Shown: positions 44,765-54,130 of the stretch, piece by piece
How the letters are laid out: the number at the start of each line of letters is the position of its first letter
Numbering within the stretch: position 1 is the first letter of the stretch
From: Candidatus Eiseniibacteriota bacterium
GTDB lineage: Bacteria; Eisenbacteria; RBG-16-71-46; JABDJR01
Assembly: GCA_963783375.1 (NCBI GenBank)
Contig: CAWANH010000029.1
Span: forward strand, 1,184,001 to 1,248,000
Reading direction: 5' to 3'
Length of the DNA: 64,000 nucleotides
Notes under the pieces: model-generated
Database searches by the model: none
The model's input: only the letters and a program-made list of their open reading frames with translations
Told to the model about the DNA's origin: nothing
Program-made: the position numbers and the translations under genes

Positions 44765-45898
44765 CTAGGAAAGCGCCTGCTTCACGTCCTCGATCAGATC
44801 CTCCGCGTCCTCGCATCCCACCGAGAACCGGATGAGGCCGTCGGTCAGCCCCACCTTGCGGCGCTCGGATTCGGGAACCGACGCGTGGGTCATGGAGGCG
44901 GGATGGGAAACCAGGCTCTCCACCCCGCCCAGGCTCTCGGCCAGGGAGAATATCCTGAACCGGGGGAGCACCCGGCGGGCCTCGTCGAAGCTCTCCAGGT
45001 CCACCGAGACCATCCCCCCGAAACCGCGCATCTGGCGCCGGGCCAGATCGTACTGGGGATGGGACTCGAGACCGGGATAGATCACCCGCCTCACCGAGGA
45101 GTGGTTCTCCAGGAACCGCGCCACCTGCATGGCGTTCAGGGCGTGCCGCTCCATCCGGAGGGCCAAGGTCTTGATCCCCCGAAGGGCCAGCCAGGCGTCG
45201 AAGGGGCCGGGCACCGCCCCGGCCGCGTTCTGCAGGAATCGCAGGCGCTCGGCCACCCCCGCGTCCCGGGTGACCGCGATCCCCCCCACCATGTCGCTGT
45301 GGCCGTTCAGGTACTTGGTGCTGGAGTGGACCACCACATCCGCCCCCAGCTCGAGGGGGGTCTGAAAGAACGGGCTCATGAAGGTGTTGTCCACCACCAG
45401 ACGCACCCCCCGCTGGCGGCAGATCGCGCTCACCGCGGGGATGTCGGTGAGGATCATGACCGGGTTGGAAGGGGTCTCGATCAGGAGCATGCGGGTCCCG
45501 GGGGTGATCGCCTCCGCCACCGCGGCCGGGTCGCGGGTGGAGACGGTCCGGAAGGCCATCCCGAGGGGGTTCATGACCTGGTCGAGGAGCCGGTAGGTGC
45601 CGCCGTAGAGGTTGTCCCCCAGGAGCACCTCGTCCCCGGCGGCCAGGGTCTGGACCACGGCGTGGATCGCGGCCATGCCGCTGGCGAAGGCGATCCCGTG
45701 GTCGGCCTTCTCCAGGGCGGCCACGTTTCGCTCCAGAGCCTCCCGGGTGGGGTTCTGGGTGCGCGCGTACTCGTACCCCTTGTGCTTTCCCACCCCCTCC
45801 TGGACGTAGGTCGAGGTCTGGTAGATGGGAACCATGACCGCCCCGGTGGTGGGGTCAGGATGCTGTCCGGCGTGGATGGCGTCGGTGGAGAAACCCAT
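44765..45898 (-). CDS. Cystathionine gamma-lyase/synthase (Cys/Met metabolism PLP enzyme)
   Basis: PIYQTSTY, YARTQNPTR, DNTF, HSSTKYLNGHSD, AESLGGVESL. Confidence 0.93.
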   Translation of the reverse strand: MGFSTDAIHAGQHPDPTTGAVMVPIYQTSTYVQEGVGKHKGYEYARTQNPTREALERNVAALEKADHGIAFASGMAAIHAVVQTLAAGDEVLLGDNLYGGTYRLLDQVMNPLGMAFRTVSTRDPAAVAEAITPGTRMLLIETPSNPVMILTDIPAVSAICRQRGVRLVVDNTFMSPFFQTPLELGADVVVHSSTKYLNGHSDMVGGIAVTRDAGVAERLRFLQNAAGAVPGPFDAWLALRGIKTLALRMERHALNAMQVARFLENHSSVRRVIYPGLESHPQYDLARRQMRGFGGMVSVDLESFDEARRVLPRFRIFSLAESLGGVESLVSHPASMTHASVPESERRKVGLTDGLIRFSVGCEDAEDLIEDVKQALS

Positions 45899-46187: not shown

Positions 46188-47579
46188 TCAGTGCACCTTG
46201 GTGACGGCCTCCGCGTAGTTGAAGTTCTTGTCGAAATCCCCGGTGTGGCAGTTCCGGCAGGTGTCCTCGGTGGGAACCTTCACCATGGCCGCGGTGCCGT
46301 GAAAGGTCCCCATCCCGTGACAGCTCTCGCACTGAACGTTACGCATGGCTGGAGTGTCCACGGCGTTGGCGGTCTGCTTGGATGCGTCCGCGTTCACGGT
46401 CAACTCGTAGCCGGTGGGCTGGCCGTAGCCGGTGACGTGGCACTGGACGCACTCCGTGGAGTTCTCCTTGTGGTCCTTGGCCAGGGTGGCGAAGGCATGG
46501 GCATGGGGGGACTCGGCCCACTTGGTGTAGATCTCGCTGTGGCAACGGGCGCAGGTCTCGGCCCCGACGTATTTCTCCGTCCCCTGCATCACCGCCGCCT
46601 TGGCCGCGTTCTTCCTCTTCTCCTCCGACTTCTTGGCGTTCCAGTCGTTCTCCCACTTGGTCACCACGGCATCCATGTCGCCGTCCTTGGCGACCTTCTC
46701 GTCCAGGGGTTTCCCCTCGCCGTTGTAGTCGGCGATCTGCTTGTCGTCCCCCAGGGTGAGGTCGAGGACCGAGAGGTACTGACCCCGGGTGCCGGGACGA
46801 AGGATCAGGGTTTGACCGGTGCGGTCGGGGTTGAACATGTAGCCCGGGTTGTGACCCACCATCACCACGTCCATGCCCGGAACGTCGGTGGCCAGCTGCT
46901 TGGCGTCCCGGGGGTCCTCGTGCACCAGCGCCACCACGATGTCCGCTTTGCTCCGAAGCTCGGGGATCACCCGCTGAAGGGCGGTCTTGGGGTCCTCGAA
47001 GGTGAAGTCGTCCGCCTTCTGGATCCCCCGGGTGAGGTTGAAGTTGTAGTAGGAACCGGCGGTGACTCCGGTGATCCCCACCTTGACCCCATCCCGGTCC
47101 ACGATGACGTACTCCGGCCAGACCTCTTTCCCCGCTTTGTCCTTGATGTTGGCCGAGACCACCTTCACCTCGGGGTGGTTCTCGTACATCTTCTTCAGCG
47201 GTTCCAGGCCCGGGATCATCTCCCGCTCGCCGGGAGTGACCGCGTCATAGCCCAGCTTGGCCATCATGTCGAACTCGAAGGAGGTCTTTCCCCAGGGGTC
47301 GTAGTCGTTGTCGGCCGCGAAGTCGCCCGCGTCGACGAGGACGATGGGGTTTCCCTGTGCCCGCTCGCTCTTGATCAAGGTCGCCCTCCGGGCGAACCCG
47401 CCTAATTGCCTCTTGTGTCACCCACAGGGCGAGGTCTCGCCGTTGATCGACGAGGACCCCAGGATGGTGATGGTATTGTTCGACTTGCTCTCGCCTTGGG
47501 ATGCCGGCAAGAGCAGGAGGAACACCAGGGATAGGCCCGCCAACGAGCCCAACCACATGAGCTTACGCCTGAATTTCAT
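46188..47579 (-). CDS. Exported UshA-like selenoprotein (CGU motif) with a C-terminal tetraheme cytochrome c domain
   Basis: ATG 47579 with GAGGAG RBS and signal peptide. In-frame TGA at 47418-47420 in SPCG*HKRQLGGFARRA joins ORFs 47418..47744 and 46188..47378. DAGD/GERE/VGH motifs; CARCH, CVQCH, CESCH, CRNCH. Confidence 0.85.
47379..47398 (-). promoter_or_regulatory. Candidate bacterial SECIS hairpin
   Basis: mRNA GG-U-UCGCCC-GGA-GGGCGA-CC; the G-first apical loop starts 29 nt after the UGA. Confidence 0.6.
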
Positions 47580-47748
47580 CGTCCTCTCCTCGGGAACGGA
47601 ATCGATCTTGGCAGCCAACGACCGAAAGCATGGGGGCGCACAGTCGTAAGCGACGAGTATAGCATGGGAACCGCGCCGTCCTGCAACCTCCAGAGCTACC
47701 TCGAGTTGGCGGGGTGGATTCCCTTCCGGCCCCGGCCCGGGCAACCCC

Positions 47749-48741
47749 TTACTCGGTCCCTTCGTCCTTTTCCTTGTCCTGGGCCTTCTCCCGGGCCTTC
47801 CAGGCGGTCTCCCACCGCGTCACCACCGGACCGATGGCCGGATCCTTGGGGTAGGAATCGCTCACCGGCGTCCCCTCACCCTCGAAGTCGGCGACGGTGT
47901 TGTCCGGTCCCAGGGTGAGGTGCAGCACCGAGAGATACTGACCGCGGGTTCCGGGACTGAGCACCACCGTCTTCCCGGACTGTTCGGGGGCGAAGACGTA
48001 TTTCGGGTTGTGGCCCACCACCACGACGTCCACCCCCGGCGCGTCGGTCGCGAGTTTCTTGGCCTCGTCGGGGGACTGGTGAACGAGCGCCACCACGATG
48101 TCGACCTTGCCCTGGAGTTCCCCCTCCACGCGCCGGAGCGCCTGGGCGGGATCCTCGAAGGTGAAGTCGTCCGACGTCTGTACCTTCCGAGCCACGTTGA
48201 ACTTGTAGAAGGCGTCGCCGGTGACCCCGGTCACCCCGATCTTGATCCCGCCCTTCTCCACGATCACGTACTCCGGCCAGATCCGGTTGCCGGAGGCGTC
48301 CATCACGTTGGCCGACACCACCTTCACCTCGGGATGGGCGGCACACACCTCTTTCAGGGACGCGAGCCCGTCGACCATCTCCCGCTCGCCGGGGGTGACC
48401 GCGTCGTATCCCAGCCGGGCCATCATCTCGAAGATGAAGGCGGTCTTCTTGTGGCGCTCGAAACCCCGGTCCGCCCCGAAATCCCCCGCGTCCACCAGGA
48501 GAACCGGGTTCCCGGCGTCCCGCACCTCTTTGATCACGCTGGCCCTGCGGGGGAAGCCCCCCAGGTCCCGCTTCGCGCAGCCGCAGGAGGTGATCTCCCC
48601 CTCGATGGAGGCGGATCCGATAACCGTGAGGGTGGAGCCCGGGACCGCCTCGCCCCGCGCCGCGGGAAGGACCAGCAGCAGGGCCACGGCCAGCCCGGCG
48701 GGGAGGCTCAGTCGGCCCAAGGTGCGCGTACTAATCATCAT
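47749..48741 (-). CDS. Exported UshA-like protein, Cys paralog (CGC motif) without a heme domain
   Basis: Signal peptide; TSCGCAKRDLGGFPRRA, VDAGD, YDAVTPGERE; collinear with the downstream paralog. Confidence 0.85.
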   Translation of the reverse strand: MMISTRTLGRLSLPAGLAVALLLVLPAARGEAVPGSTLTVIGSASIEGEITSCGCAKRDLGGFPRRASVIKEVRDAGNPVLLVDAGDFGADRGFERHKKTAFIFEMMARLGYDAVTPGEREMVDGLASLKEVCAAHPEVKVVSANVMDASGNRIWPEYVIVEKGGIKIGVTGVTGDAFYKFNVARKVQTSDDFTFEDPAQALRRVEGELQGKVDIVVALVHQSPDEAKKLATDAPGVDVVVVGHNPKYVFAPEQSGKTVVLSPGTRGQYLSVLHLTLGPDNTVADFEGEGTPVSDSYPKDPAIGPVVTRWETAWKAREKAQDKEKDEGTE

Positions 48742-48897: not shown

Positions 48898-51800
48898 TCA
48901 CGGCAGCATCCGGGTGATGCCGGAGAGCCCGCTGCCGGCGTTTCGGCCCTGCTCGTACTTCACGTCCGGCATGGCCTTGGCGTTGATCCGGAAGTAGAAC
49001 GAGGTGTCGGTTCCCAGCTGGTTCCGGCTGAACTGGGCCTCCCAGCAGTGGAGGTCCCGGCGGAGGCCGATCGACTCGCCCGACACCTTGTGGGCGGTAA
49101 GGTCCCAGGTGCTTGAATAGGTGACCGACCAGTTCTTGGTGATCTGGACCGAGGCGTTGGTGTTCAGGGTGGTGGTGGTCTTGATCCGGTCGCCGACCCG
49201 GGATCCGCTGTAGGAGAGGCTGAAGTTGCTGTTCCAGCGGAGGGCCTCGTCGGAAGCGGGGCTCGACCCCACCTGGTCCAGGGCCGAGCGCCCCAGGTTG
49301 GCCCCCAGCCGCTCCCAGGTCCCCGTGTCGCGGAACGGGTCCTCGGGGCCGGCGGTGGCCTCCCCCGCCTCCGCCCCGGGGAGGAGCCCCCCCAGCCCGA
49401 AGTTGGCCCGGAACCCGTAGTTCAGGAACCGGAACTGATGGTAGGGGTCGTGGTTCGAGTTGAAGCTCATGTTCACCCCGTACACGGTGGGGATGTCCAA
49501 GTTGGAGGACACGTTGCTCCATCCCCGGGTCCCCCGCTTCTTGGCCAGGAAATCGTATCCCGAACCCAGGGACCACTCGAGCAGGTTGATCCGTTTGATG
49601 CTCTCCCCGGAGCGGACCTTGGCCTGGAGCCCGTTCCGGAGTCCCAGGCTCACCGATTTCTGCTCGAACCCGCCGATCCCCGGGAACCGGTTGTGCCGGT
49701 TTCCGTCGGCATCCACGTAGGTGAGGCCGTTGAAGCTCGGCTGGTACCTGAACGTCGCGTTGGGCTGGAAGGTGTGGCGAAGGGCGGTGACCGGTCCGAT
49801 CCCCCCGAAGGTCCCGTAGATCGCGGTCCCCGTACCCACCGAGAGGTTCCAGACCGCGGCCCGGCGGAAGCCCTTCACGGTGTCGGTGGCCGAGTACTCG
49901 CGATCCGCCCAGTTCTCGGTGAGGTTCAGGGATGGCTGGAAGTTGAACACGTTCCAGAACCGCCGCGAGTCATTGAGGCTGATGGTGTGCCGGGCGGAGG
50001 ACGAGCGTTCCTTGTCGACGGCGTAGAGGGTGTCCGCGGCCGCACCCACGGTGGTGTCCGCGGGCACAAGGGTGGTCCGTTCCTTCTCGGTGTAGATGGA
50101 GGAGCCGCTGGAACTCAAGGTGAGGCTGGTGCTGGAAAGCCAGGGCCTCACCCCGCCCTTTCCCTCCGCGTCCGCCGGACGTCCAAGGGTGATCCGGTTC
50201 ATGGAGAACCGGTACTGGGGGAAGCTCTCGGTCAAGATCGTCTCGTCCCTCCCGTCACCGGGCACCACGGCCAGATTCTTGGTGCGGCTGGCGGTCAGGA
50301 ACAACGATGCCCTGGAAAACGACCGGCTCAGGGAGAGATCGGACTTGAGTATCCGATCCACCCGGTCGGCAAAGTCGTTGCCCAGGGGAAGCTGCTGGTT
50401 GTATTGCGCGTCCCGGAATGAGGCCCGGCCGGTGAGCCGCCAGTCCCCCAGGGTCATGTCGTGGGCCCCCTGAAGGTTCGAAAGCTTCTGTCCCGAGCCG
50501 AGGGTGCGCCCGAACTGCAGGTTGCCGTTCATGACGTACCGCTTGGCATACCGCCCCTCGACCTGTCCGATGAATTGCGAGGGCTGTTCGGTGTAGCTGG
50601 CGCTGGTGGTGAGATCCCAGTACTGGCTGGCCGCCCAGTAGTAGCCGAGGTTGGAGAAGGATCGCCCCTGGGTGCTTCCCAGCCCGAAGTCGATGTTGGG
50701 GGTGAGGAACCCGGAGTGGCGTCCCTTGCGGATCGAGAACACGTAGAACGGCAGGGCGAAGACCGGGATGTCCCGGATGTAGAGGGTCACCGGCTTCGCC
50801 ACCACCTTGTCCTTGAGGTAGATCCGCATCCGCTTGCTGGTGAAGTGGTAGTGGGGCGACTTGTCGTGATCGATGAGATCACAGGTGGTGTAGCTTCCCT
50901 CCCGGGCCAGGAACTGGTCTTCGCCGATCTTTCGGAGCGCGTCCGAATAGATGAATCCGTCCTGGGCTTCGGTCTTCCCGGCCCGGATCATCCCCTCACG
51001 GGTATTGAGGTTGTAGTTCATCCGGGTGCCGACGATCTGCTGGGCCGCCGTCCCCTCCCCGTGCTCCACCAGCACGGGCTTGTCCTCCGCCTCCATGTAG
51101 CGCCGGTCGGTGTAGAAACGCACCTTGCCCGCGGTGAGGGTGAGGCTTCCGTAGTCCGCCTTGGCCTCGCCCAGAAGATCCACCACGCGGTCGGAAACCG
51201 TGTAGTCCACGGTGGCGGCCTCGTAGACCACCTTCTCCGGCGCGGTTCCCGCCGCGGTGTCGGCGTGGGCGGGAACCGGCGCGGCCCCCGCCGCGGTGCC
51301 GGGGTGGGCCGGGCTCCCGGCCACGGTGTCGGGGGCCGCCCCCGGCGGGGTGGGGTTCCCCGGAGGTGGGGCCGCCGAATCGGGGGCGGCCGGCGTCCTC
51401 CCCGGCCCGGACGGAGCGCCGCCGGTGGTGTCCGGAGGCCCTCCGAGGATCCGGCCCAGACCCGCCGCGGCTTCGGCGGCCCGCTCCTCGGGGCTCATGG
51501 CGGTCGAGACATCCTTCCCCCCGAAGGTGTAGACCCCCTTGGCGTGTCCGGAGATCCGCACCCGGTGGATCTTCCCCTCCTCGATGAAGATGGTGATGGT
51601 GTCGCCCTGGGCGGCGTTGGTTCCCGCCCCGGCCTCCGCATCGGCCGGCGAGGGAATGTAGGCGCTGGTGGCGTGGTCGAACACCACCACCCGGTCCGCG
51701 GCGTCCTCCACGAAGTACATGGTGAGGGAGTCGCCGCGGACGATGCTCATCTCCCCCACGTGCAGGCTGTCCGTGGGGGCGTAGGTGACCTGCGCCCGGC

Positions 51801-53163
51801 CGTGAACGTCGGCCTGCTGGAGCACCCGGTCCTCGTCGAAGCGGAGAATGAGGGTGTCTCCGGTGAGCGTCCCGTCCGCCTCCTCCACCCGGGGGCTCCC
51901 GTAGAGGAAGGCGTTGTGGGTGTCGGCGAAGAACGAGGCGGAGTCGGCATAGGCGCGGACGCCGCCTCGGAGCACGCGCACCGCGCCCGAGGCGGAGGCG
52001 TTCCCCCCCGGATCCAGCCACACCCGCTCCCCCCCGATCCGGATCGGTCCCCCGCTCCCTCCGGTCAGGATCAGCATCGGGCGCTGGTCCACCCGGGCGC
52101 GGTCGGTGTCCAGGTCGTAGATCAGCCGCTCGCCGGTCAGGTTGGTGTTGTTTCCCGGCTCGCTGACCCGGACCTCCCCGAGCAGGATGATCTGGCGTCG
52201 TTCCCGGTACCAGTCCGCCTCCCGGGCCATGAACCGGCGTTCCCCGCGATGCCCCCGAGCGTTGCCGATCATGCGCATCACCCCGGTCTCCCGGTCGAAG
52301 CGCCCCTCGTCCCCCTCCAGCACCAGGGAGTCCGCGGGGACCCTCACCTCCACCTCGCCGTCGGCCACCAGGAGCCCGGTGTCGCGATGGTAGACCGCGG
52401 TCCGGCTTCTCCCGTGGGTTCCGGGATCGGTGAACACGACCCCGCCGCTCAGGTGCGCTTCGCCGGAGTCCACCAGATAGGTGCCGGTGGGCGCGGCGAT
52501 GGTGAGGTCCTTGTGGGTGATGAAGGGGTTGGTCACGTGGAGCACCTGGCCTTCGGGCCCGGTGGTGGCGATCAACGGCTCCCCGGTCAGCGTCCACTCG
52601 TCGGGACCGGTGATCGCCTCGGGGGCGGGGACGACCGAGGTTTCCGGCGGCGCGGCGGCGGTCTTCGGAACCGCCCCCGCGACGACCGAGGTTTCGGGGA
52701 CGGCGACGGCGGTCGGCGGGACGCCCGGAGCGGCGGTGGTCCCGGGCGCGGCCCCGGCGCCCGGCGGCCGAGCCCCGGCCACCACCGTGGTCCCCGGCGC
52801 CGCCGCGGCGCCCGCGAACGGGGTCCGGCCCGTGCTCTCCGGCGCGGCCTCGGCGATTCCCGGGGCCGGCCCCGCCCCGACGACGATGGCCCCGGTGGAA
52901 TCGACGCTCCATCCGCCGGTGAGCGCCCCGGTGGAATCCAGGCCCGATCCGGCGGTGGGCGCCCCGGTGGAGTCGCCCGTCCCCCCGGGTTGAACCGCCT
53001 GGGAGCCGGGAGAGCGGGACGCGGCGGTCGGGGAGGTGCCCAGGGGTTCGCGGAACCACGCGCACCCCCCCAGGACCGCGAGCAGCAGCACGATCCCCAC
53101 CCGGCCGGGAACCGGCCCGAGCCTGAAACGGCCGGCCATCGACGGCCCCGTGGTCGTGATCAT
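48898..53163 (-). CDS. lptD: Very long LPS-assembly protein LptD-like (several OstA-like beta-jellyroll regions plus beta-barrel)
   Basis: SYTTCD..PHYHF, PVFALPFY, GFLTP, LGYYWA and C-terminal RRDLHCWEA..FRINAK motifs; N-terminal LGGC; Pro/Ala-rich linkers. Confidence 0.8.
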   Translation of the reverse strand: MITTTGPSMAGRFRLGPVPGRVGIVLLLAVLGGCAWFREPLGTSPTAASRSPGSQAVQPGGTGDSTGAPTAGSGLDSTGALTGGWSVDSTGAIVVGAGPAPGIAEAAPESTGRTPFAGAAAAPGTTVVAGARPPGAGAAPGTTAAPGVPPTAVAVPETSVVAGAVPKTAAAPPETSVVPAPEAITGPDEWTLTGEPLIATTGPEGQVLHVTNPFITHKDLTIAAPTGTYLVDSGEAHLSGGVVFTDPGTHGRSRTAVYHRDTGLLVADGEVEVRVPADSLVLEGDEGRFDRETGVMRMIGNARGHRGERRFMAREADWYRERRQIILLGEVRVSEPGNNTNLTGERLIYDLDTDRARVDQRPMLILTGGSGGPIRIGGERVWLDPGGNASASGAVRVLRGGVRAYADSASFFADTHNAFLYGSPRVEEADGTLTGDTLILRFDEDRVLQQADVHGRAQVTYAPTDSLHVGEMSIVRGDSLTMYFVEDAADRVVVFDHATSAYIPSPADAEAGAGTNAAQGDTITIFIEEGKIHRVRISGHAKGVYTFGGKDVSTAMSPEERAAEAAAGLGRILGGPPDTTGGAPSGPGRTPAAPDSAAPPPGNPTPPGAAPDTVAGSPAHPGTAAGAAPVPAHADTAAGTAPEKVVYEAATVDYTVSDRVVDLLGEAKADYGSLTLTAGKVRFYTDRRYMEAEDKPVLVEHGEGTAAQQIVGTRMNYNLNTREGMIRAGKTEAQDGFIYSDALRKIGEDQFLAREGSYTTCDLIDHDKSPHYHFTSKRMRIYLKDKVVAKPVTLYIRDIPVFALPFYVFSIRKGRHSGFLTPNIDFGLGSTQGRSFSNLGYYWAASQYWDLTTSASYTEQPSQFIGQVEGRYAKRYVMNGNLQFGRTLGSGQKLSNLQGAHDMTLGDWRLTGRASFRDAQYNQQLPLGNDFADRVDRILKSDLSLSRSFSRASLFLTASRTKNLAVVPGDGRDETILTESFPQYRFSMNRITLGRPADAEGKGGVRPWLSSTSLTLSSSGSSIYTEKERTTLVPADTTVGAAADTLYAVDKERSSSARHTISLNDSRRFWNVFNFQPSLNLTENWADREYSATDTVKGFRRAAVWNLSVGTGTAIYGTFGGIGPVTALRHTFQPNATFRYQPSFNGLTYVDADGNRHNRFPGIGGFEQKSVSLGLRNGLQAKVRSGESIKRINLLEWSLGSGYDFLAKKRGTRGWSNVSSNLDIPTVYGVNMSFNSNHDPYHQFRFLNYGFRANFGLGGLLPGAEAGEATAGPEDPFRDTGTWERLGANLGRSALDQVGSSPASDEALRWNSNFSLSYSGSRVGDRIKTTTTLNTNASVQITKNWSVTYSSTWDLTAHKVSGESIGLRRDLHCWEAQFSRNQLGTDTSFYFRINAKAMPDVKYEQGRNAGSGLSGITRMLP

Positions 53164-53164
53164 G

Positions 53165-54130
53165 TCATCGCGCGGTCGTGGTGGAGTCCTCCAGGAGGAG
53201 CGCCGCCGACCCCAGAAGCCCTGCATCGGTTCCGAGTCCCGCGGGGAGAATCTCCGGGGGCGACTGCCGGGCCACCAGAGATCGCCGCATCAGGTGCTCG
53301 CGGGCGGGATCGAAGAGGAGCGCTCCCGCCTGGGCCACCCCGCCGCCGATCACCACCCGCCGGGGGTTGAATATGTTGACCAGGGTCACCAGGAGGCCGC
53401 CCAGGGCATGTCCCACGTTCTCCATCACCTCCCGGGCCACCCGGCTTCCCTGATGGGCGGCCTCGGTCAGGACCTCCGGGGTGAGGGGATCCGCCCCGGA
53501 GAGGAGCGCGTCCCGGGCGAAGCCCGGATGGCGCTTCGCCGCCTTCACGATGTCCTTGTTCCCTACATACCGCTCCGCGCAGCCCCGGTTCCCGCAGGTA
53601 CACTCGATGCCGTCCAGGACCAGGGTGGCATGGCCGGGCTCGCCGGCGAAACCGTCGGCCCCGCGCACCAGTTCCCCGTTCACGATGAATGCCCCGCCGA
53701 TGCCCGTCCCCAGGGTGAGGAACACCATGTGGGGAAGCCGCTCCCCCGCCCCCCATCGCCACTCGGCCAGGGAGAAGGTGTTGACGTCGTTGTCCACCCG
53801 GGCGGGGAGCCCGAGACGATCGCTCAGGGCCTTTCCGAGGGCGAAGTTCTCCCATTTGGGAAGGTTGGGGGAGAACTGCACAAGCCCCTGGTCGCAGTTC
53901 ACCAGCCCCGCGCACCCTGCTCCCACCCCTTCCGCCTTCTCCCATCCCGCCCGGCCGAGGAGCCCACGGAGCTTCTCCGCCACCTCGTCCAGAACCTCTT
54001 CGCGATCGCGGTCGGCGTGGTTGTGGATCGCGTCGGAGGCGGCCAGGCGGGCGGTCTCGTCGATCTCCACCGCCCCCAGCTTGATCCCCGTCCCGCCAAC
54101 GTCCACGCCGAAGATACGACGTGCGGCCAC
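53165..54130 (-). CDS. ROK-family sugar kinase (glucokinase-like)
   Basis: GVDVGGT, DNDVN, LGTGIGG, GEPGH, CTCGNRGCAE. Confidence 0.92.
   Translation of the reverse strand: MAARRIFGVDVGGTGIKLGAVEIDETARLAASDAIHNHADRDREEVLDEVAEKLRGLLGRAGWEKAEGVGAGCAGLVNCDQGLVQFSPNLPKWENFALGKALSDRLGLPARVDNDVNTFSLAEWRWGAGERLPHMVFLTLGTGIGGAFIVNGELVRGADGFAGEPGHATLVLDGIECTCGNRGCAERYVGNKDIVKAAKRHPGFARDALLSGADPLTPEVLTEAAHQGSRVAREVMENVGHALGGLLVTLVNIFNPRRVVIGGGVAQAGALLFDPAREHLMRRSLVARQSPPEILPAGLGTDAGLLGSAALLLEDSTTTAR

Follow-up and report, generated by a model that had tools for sequence, protein, structure and literature searches.

A probable exported selenoprotein with an UshA-like fold and a tetraheme cytochrome domain in an Eisenbacteria genome, and its possible role in disulfide formation

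The gene and its in-frame TGA

The window analysed here is a stretch of 64,000 nucleotides from a Candidatus Eiseniibacteriota genome. On its minus strand, a gene runs from an ATG at 47579 to a stop codon at 46188 and encodes a protein of 463 amino acids if its single internal TGA is read as selenocysteine (Sec). This TGA is codon 54 (47420-47418) and lies within the segment GETSPCGUHKRQLGGFARRA, which is followed by a DAGD motif and by four CxxCH motifs. The open reading frame list divides the gene at this codon into a piece at 47418-47744 and a piece of 396 amino acids that has no signal-like start. A previous sequence-only reading of this DNA had held that the two parts are in frame and form one gene, with a signal peptide at its beginning and four heme motifs at its end, and that the heme protein would have no signal peptide without readthrough, all of which agrees with the translation, the signal-like start being judged by eye. 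A promoter scan at the locus returned no sites, and terminator-like sites were found at chance level. The features of the locus are collected in Table 1.

Table 1. Features at the locus, with positions in the window
Feature	Position	Strand	Basis or remark
UshA-like (seleno)protein that ends in a tetraheme domain and has a single in-frame TGA	46188..47579	-	Translation; NF041198, 278.4 bits against a cut-off of 275
Shine-Dalgarno-like GAGGAG, 6 nt before the ATG	47586..47591	-	Sequence
Signal-peptide-like N-terminus, approximately residues 1-29, with basic start and hydrophobic core	47493..47579	-	Judged by eye
Cys52-Gly53-Sec54 motif (PCGU, residues 51-54; TGA at 47420-47418)	47418..47426	-	Translation, homologues, read contigs
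SECIS-type hairpin, stem of 5-6 bp, GGA loop occupying +29 to +31 relative to the UGA	47381..47395	-	Fold and covariation
5'-nucleotidase/SoxB-type N-terminal domain, approximately residues 33-320, whose metal and catalytic motifs are eroded	46620..47483	-	Profiles, alignment, structure match
Cytochrome c554-type tetraheme domain, residues 335-463; CxxCH at 343, 377, 417 and 441; spare His359, His427 and His463	46191..46577	-	Pfam, alignment, superposition on 1bvb
Heme 2 motif C377-H381, aligned to heme 2 of c554; predicted to have no distal His from its own domain	46437..46451	-	Judged from sequence
Cys paralog without hemes, 57% identical, immediately upstream (TSCGC, TGC at 48579-48577)	47749..48741	-
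lptD-like gene	48898..53226	-	Lies upstream in 26 of 100 compared regions
Cys/Met-metabolism PLP enzyme, cystathionine gamma-lyase-like	44765..45898	-	Downstream neighbour in 17 of 100 regions

The hairpin downstream of the UGA had previously been described as having a G-first loop 29 nt past the codon, which is confirmed by a GGA loop at +29, with a stem that begins at +23/+24. It forms in a 56-nt fold but is absent from the minimum-energy fold of a 106-nt segment, whose stability is not above that of shuffled sequences (z 0.54); folding energy alone is thus no proof of the hairpin, which is supplied by its conservation. In 27 aligned orthologues, obtained from 30 loci after removing a near-copy, a locus at a contig end and one with a shorter spacer, the stem is paired throughout (135 of 135 cells, 14 of them with both sides changed), as against 34-51% pairing in slid controls. 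One of these double changes falls on two silent codon positions. Furthermore, all five pairs are intact in 43 of 46 TGA copies, whereas, among 10 Cys copies in which the GG-x-ARR peptide is unchanged, this is true of only 2, these counts including kin that are not independent. Other lineages that have a different peptide at that place do not use this hairpin.

With regard to the decoding of the TGA, the host genome (97% complete) contains tRNA-Sec, selA, selB and selD, the last of which itself carries one TGA, and selA was found in 59 of the 61 genomes of the host class. The PCG-TGA sequence is kept in all of the 30 best loci from related genomes. The codon is spanned by contigs of four out of four sequencing runs, one of which may be the source sample, with no change listed there; these contigs and the conservation in the related loci rule out an assembly error at this position. 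Two RNA-library runs have contigs that span the codon, these contigs giving neither transcription nor its level. Among 115 full-length homologues (113 distinct), a set chosen partly by the PCG(U/C) motif and in which 11 database proteins were counted as Cys without their codon being seen, the residue at this site is Sec in 65 and Cys in 50, and nothing else. Five of the 80 loci examined missed the motif pattern; three of these have the motif on inspection and two are truncated. A quick tree suggests about 15 switches between Sec and Cys. Recoding of the TGA as Trp or as another residue was rejected on account of this exclusive Sec/Cys pairing and of the presence of a dedicated tRNA-Trp(CCA) and tRNA-Sec(TCA).

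The TGA is therefore very likely read as Sec, in which case the product would, on sequence evidence, be exported, contain selenocysteine and carry four heme-binding motifs, and we infer with strong confidence that Sec is inserted and that the protein is exported. A true stop at this codon, yielding a short peptide and a separate cytochrome, would agree with the majority of database copies, which are split at the TGA (82-88% coverage); it is nevertheless hardly credible in view of the Sec machinery of the host and its class, the conserved codon and hairpin, and the existence of full-length Cys homologues. The sequence-only reading had itself named a lack of Sec machinery, TGC or TGT in the reads, and Trp or other residues in homologues as findings that would count against it, and none of the three was encountered.

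Family membership and domain anatomy

The protein passes the cut-off of the NCBIfam family NF041198 (UshA_like_PCGU) by a narrow margin, with Sec entered as Cys. Positions 344-519 of this model match the heme domain, so the model already includes the cytochrome half, and the heme fusion is not new. The view that UshA-like CxU proteins had been predicted before is correct: in the accessible portions of three papers, a 'COG0737 UshA-like, CxU' selenoprotein is tabulated without a function (PMC2398784, PMC9312934, PMC13188914), and the GOS table, as far as it is accessible, counts 76 copies of the family. NF041198 is common in Planctomycetota, Verrucomicrobiota and Bdellovibrionota clusters. By its sequence type, the protein is a member of this catalogued family, and the gene itself amounts to an annotation fix.

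Several paralogs accompany it. The one directly upstream does have Cys (TGC) at the matching position, as had been pointed out (TSCGCAKRDLGGFPRRA), but it is a protein of 330 amino acids that is heme-less, which had gone unmentioned; it could conceivably use the tetraheme domain of its neighbour in trans. Comparable tandem copies are found in genomes G002, G005 and G006, and a heme-less Sec copy lies downstream in G009. When longer fusions of the heme-less paralog were sought, the matches were ordinary nucleotidases and a single family member of 584 amino acids. Elsewhere in the host genome, a full PCGU tetraheme copy of the Sec type (C25:2687-4050, minus strand) adjoins a molybdopterin oxidoreductase (PF00174) gene, and a near-identical frameshifted copy of it on another contig (C28:826258-827630, minus strand) is possibly an assembly duplicate. 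A heme-less paralog of the Sec type with a PCTU motif is located at C29:400886-401760 (plus strand). One Eisenbacteria region (L093) holds three full tetraheme copies, two of them with Cys and one with Sec.

The confidently predicted structure of the 463-residue protein (pLDDT 93, pTM 0.78) places a 5'-nucleotidase/SoxB fold at residues 33-320, with Z scores of 34.9 to 2z1a and 31.7 to SoxB, and joins it by a long helix to a c554-like domain that superposes on cytochrome c554 (1bvb) with a Z score of 11.5 and an rmsd of 2.2 Å over 117 residues. A model of the heme domain predicted alone and without an alignment reached a pLDDT of 32 and was discarded. DxH, GD, GNHE, H and GHxH/Q are the dimetal and catalytic motifs of an active 5'-nucleotidase, GNHE being visible in the alignment. 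In the host protein, DxH and GNHE are replaced and only GD, H220 and GH243 are kept. These metal-site positions are variable among the 115 homologues, with D86 present in 60, H220 in 72 and H243 in 61. Moreover, no Pfam match to the 5'-nucleotidase C-terminal domain (PF02872) was found in the protein, which has PF13435 there instead. Nucleotidase chemistry looks lost, as far as such motifs can tell.

All 115 homologues agree in the CG(U/C) loop (in part because of how the set was chosen), G60, G85, the four CxxCH motifs and two spare histidines, the third spare histidine being kept in 107; Arg64 and Arg65 are conserved. The heme domain can be classed as c554-type by its four CxxCH motifs, its three distal His candidates and its fold. 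With three spare histidines for four hemes, one heme would be left open, and the alignment of the motifs to c554 points to heme 2, which, according to the accessible part of one report, is the active-site heme of c554, OcwA and MccA (10.1101/641308). The cytochrome c maturation genes that the sequence-only reading had proposed to look for are present in the host as ccmA-B-C-E-F. The host genome is very heme-rich, with 36 open reading frames that have at least three CxxCH motifs, up to 51 and 42 motifs in single frames, and several clusters. The protein has no Pfam match to DsbB, VKOR or MauE and folds as a soluble protein, which would make it only a candidate analogue of these enzymes.

DsbA-like partners and the distribution of disulfide generators

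In the host class, the gene follows accD-folC-ROK-lptD and often precedes a cbs-cgl pair, which lies downstream in many class members (CBS in 13 and CGL in 17 of 100 regions). The window keeps only the cgl-like gene of this reverse transsulfuration-like pair (44765-45898), CBS-like genes being found on other contigs. Two cysteines recur at matching positions in the LptD-like proteins. The conserved gene order may simply have been inherited. Outside the host class, the sole recurring neighbour is a DsbA-like gene, which is adjacent in five and fused in one of 119 regions, the five adjacent cases spanning at least three lineages, and among the neighbours of 74 proteins belonging to other phyla, none was common except for the DsbA-like ones. 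None of the Eisenbacteria regions examined, the locus in the window included, has a dsbA neighbour.

In one clade of metagenome loci, the gene is followed by a dsbA-like one in all 14 cases that could be assessed, about 10 of them distinct; 4 of the 19 loci are too short, and one distant locus has no dsbA-like gene. The protein P0122 is a three-domain fusion of an UshA-like CGC domain, a tetraheme domain and a DsbA-like CxxC domain with a TP motif, and such DsbA-like fusions occur in about 25 clusters at 41-57% identity. Every DsbA fusion seen is of the Cys form, with none of the Sec form. Two extra conserved C-terminal cysteines are present in the fusion L167:5944-7875 (genome G335) and in P0122-P0148. 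The DsbA-like partners have CSRC, CGSC, CGGC or CDHC motifs with a TP loop. In E. coli DsbA, the classic motifs are CPHC and VP.

The distribution of known disulfide generators was compared in 301 Gammaproteobacteria genomes, taken from the class of one carrier, of which 31 carry the NF041198 family and 300 were scored. At E<1e-15, DsbB is found in none of the 31 carriers and in 177 of 269 non-carriers (naive p 8e-14, for a threshold chosen after seeing the data), and any match to PF02600 in 8 of 31 and 188 of 269, respectively (naive p 3e-6). These tallies include one unpublished non-carrier, G147, on which the result does not depend. Among the matches listed, full-length MauE occurs in 21 of the 300 genomes, none of them a carrier, and 19 of the 31 carriers are without PF02600, PF07884 and full MauE. 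The broad family PF01323 is matched in all 31 carriers, with a base rate of 267 in 300. Weak DsbB-like or VKOR-like matches are found in 12 of the carriers, and VKOR-like ones in 6; a small DsbB-like protein with a weak score, or a VKOR-like frame of 440-480 amino acids, is frequent in carriers. DsbB was found in none of the 61 genomes of the host class and in 4 of 50 diverse carriers, strongly in one, while VKOR is found in 11 of the 61 and in 11 of the 50, with the caveat that MAGs are incomplete. One carrier, G104, has a canonical DsbB and also an adjacent dsbA.

Correction for relatedness was made on an RpoB tree of 70 genomes (25 carriers and 45 others, from 80 searched, of which 9 had no match and 1 fragment was left out). 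On this tree, the trait needs 8 changes, and the test, underpowered with only 3 well-supported independent pairs, is not significant (median p 0.5); 21 of the 25 carriers fall in a group in which 12 of 15 non-carriers also have no canonical DsbB. Many DsbB-less genomes are without the NF041198 family, and a divergent member of it, sought in five DsbB-less non-carriers, was found in none. Many of the sampled Gammaproteobacteria have a PF01323 match with no DsbB, VKOR, full MauE (among the matches listed) or NF041198 protein, hinting, at the level of gene content, at yet another oxidase.

The host and four out of four relatives tested have a full MauE, with CGCFG in all five, so there is no clear oxidase gap in the host. 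The mauE gene with CGCFG (L170, host C3:127355-130720; L168; L169) lies between rhodanese-like and TauE-like genes, labelled by eye, in the host family, and adjoins thioredoxin-like genes in genomes G008 and G014. As for DsbA, the host genome has no PF13462 match, and six DsbA-like queries gave only weak matches by tblastn. DsbD is present in the host, whose reducing branch is thus in place, as are several TlpA-type proteins that are exported. The even-cysteine bias of its exported proteins, delimited by a crude signal-peptide rule, is not significant in the strict set (0.64 against 0.60, p 0.37); the loose set gives 0.475 against 0.43.

Possible function and comparison with known systems

The protein is probably a Sec/Cys-heme redox enzyme, whichever the direction of electron flow, and the uncharacterised exported oxidoreductase proposed by the sequence-only reading fits, as a predicted activity. 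More specifically, we put forward, with somewhat less than even confidence, that it is a soluble thiol:heme oxidoreductase acting as a heme-coupled disulfide generator. A dithiol of a DsbA-type protein or of a folding protein would give up two electrons to the Cys52-Gly-Sec54 loop, which would pass them from Cys52/Sec54 to heme 2 and along the four-heme chain to a cytochrome acceptor, thereby forming disulfides without a membrane quinone-linked DsbB, VKOR or MauE. Heme 2 would be the open site contacted by the CGU loop, possibly with Cys52 as its sixth ligand by analogy with MccSep. Since the host has no DsbA family match, the donor there would have to be either the substrate itself or some other exported protein with a thioredoxin fold. 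This thiol-oxidase role is suggested by the invariance of the CG(U/C) loop, G60, G85 and the heme ligands but not of the metal sites, by the DsbA-like fusions and neighbours of the homologues, by the absence of canonical DsbB from the gammaproteobacterial carriers sampled and from the host class, by the presence of DsbD in the host, and by analogy with the proven DsbB substitute MauE, which has a CGC motif and thioredoxin fusions. The direction of electron flow would follow from the gene pattern only. Weighing against this role are the tree-corrected test, the many DsbB-less genomes that do not carry the family, the CGC-type MauE of the host and its want of a DsbA match, and the restriction of the DsbA fusions seen to Cys forms.

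A different periplasmic role, in which Cys52 would ligate heme 2 and Sec54 would attack polysulfide, persulfide or selenite while the hemes give or take electrons, is less likely and forms the main alternative. MccSep, according to the accessible part of its description, uses a His/Cys-ligated heme 2 and a Sec from another domain, which is thus a working design (PMC13510729). The heme-ligand count of the present protein fits such a small sulfur or selenium enzyme, SoxB is its next-best NCBIfam match, the conserved Arg64 and Arg65 could bind anions, and cbs-cgl lies downstream in many Eisenbacteria. Nonetheless, the similarity to MccSep is confined to the first heme motif (E 1e-4; E 0.6), the cbs-cgl link holds in one lineage only, where the upstream housekeeping synteny is equally conserved, and the family is common in the Planctomycetota, Verrucomicrobiota and Bdellovibrionota clusters. 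Searches of the host genome with MccSep and dsrA profile models gave no match, and an MccSep-like role leaves the DsbA fusions and the DsbB pattern unexplained.

Electrons could also run in reverse, leaving the hemes by way of the CGU loop for periplasmic DsbA-like proteins that serve as isomerases or repair reductases, which would account for the DsbA-like fusions and neighbours and for partner motifs that differ from the classic ones. Sec suits reductases. This direction seems a little less probable still than the MccSep-like chemistry; the host already has DsbD and several exported TlpA-type proteins, and reverse flow gives no reason for the absence of DsbB in carriers. That the N-terminal domain remains a metal-dependent hydrolase of phosphoesters or S-sulfonates, to which the Sec loop and the hemes would add a redox switch or an accessory, is improbable: although the predicted fold is intact by its match to 2z1a and SoxB, D86, H220 and H243 are kept in the host and about half of the homologues, and heme-less paralogs exist, the first-metal DxH and the catalytic GNHE are replaced, the C-terminal substrate domain of 5'-nucleotidases is absent, and the remaining metal ligands are also lost in many homologues.

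Extended to the family, the thiol-oxidase proposal would add NF041198 to the bacterial disulfide-generating enzymes as a fourth one, the first to be soluble and heme-coupled, in which a CGC/CGU loop on a dead nucleotidase scaffold oxidises DsbA-type proteins and a c554-type tetraheme domain passes the electrons to cytochromes and not to quinone; this broader claim is tentative, and we hold it a shade less firmly than the one for the single protein. What is new here is this functional lead and not the sequence type: the thiol-oxidase role, the DsbA link, the DsbB pattern and the heme-ligand count of the family were not found in searches of the open-access literature or in the accessible part of the MauE preprint (10.64898/2026.03.05.709764). 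The same preprint, as far as accessible, reports that 20.1% of 20,704 species are without all three known disulfide generators, such that more pathways must exist, and a new bacterial route to disulfide bonds, if true, would bear on these missing generators. The natural Cys forms and the one-gene DsbA fusion would make a test by dsbB complementation simple. Even if the sulfur-enzyme alternative were to prevail, a function would be gained for a selenoprotein family that ranks among the most abundant of the uncharacterised ones.

Compared with the NF041198 family (same cut-off passed, PCGU motif, heme domain within the model), the host protein presents no sequence difference. It shares the N-terminal metallophosphoesterase fold of UshA/CD73 and SoxB, but its motifs are eroded, its C-terminal domain is replaced by the cytochrome, and its scores are far below the respective cut-offs. 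Motif by motif, the heme domain can be aligned with and superposed on hemes 1-4 of OcwA/MccA and cytochrome c554 of Nitrosomonas europaea (1bvb), the latter an electron carrier that stands alone, whereas the host domain is fused to a dithiol/selenol domain. MccSep/ExtKL, the polysulfide reductase of Geobacter sulfurreducens, is likewise a periplasmic multiheme selenoprotein in which heme 2 has no distal His and Sec comes from a second domain, going by the accessible part of its description (PMC13510729, NF040886), but it has five hemes, an Ig-like second domain and a C-terminal Sec, while the host protein has four hemes and scores 21.1 bits against the NF040886 cut-off of 250.

The MauE/DsbB/VKOR enzymes resemble the present family in the CGC-type dithiol (in MauE), the thioredoxin-fold fusions and, before correction for relatedness, the patchy, complementary distribution. 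MauE has been shown to replace DsbB and has a CGC motif and 8% thioredoxin fusions, according to the accessible part of the preprint (10.64898/2026.03.05.709764). MauE, DsbB and VKOR are four-helix membrane proteins linked to quinone, whereas the host protein is predicted to be soluble, with an unrelated fold, c-type hemes, frequent use of Sec in its family and an activity that is predicted. The marks by which MauE was nominated, namely the CGC motif, the thioredoxin-fold fusions and, in uncorrected counts, the complementary spread, are found in a widespread family that would have a different electron sink.
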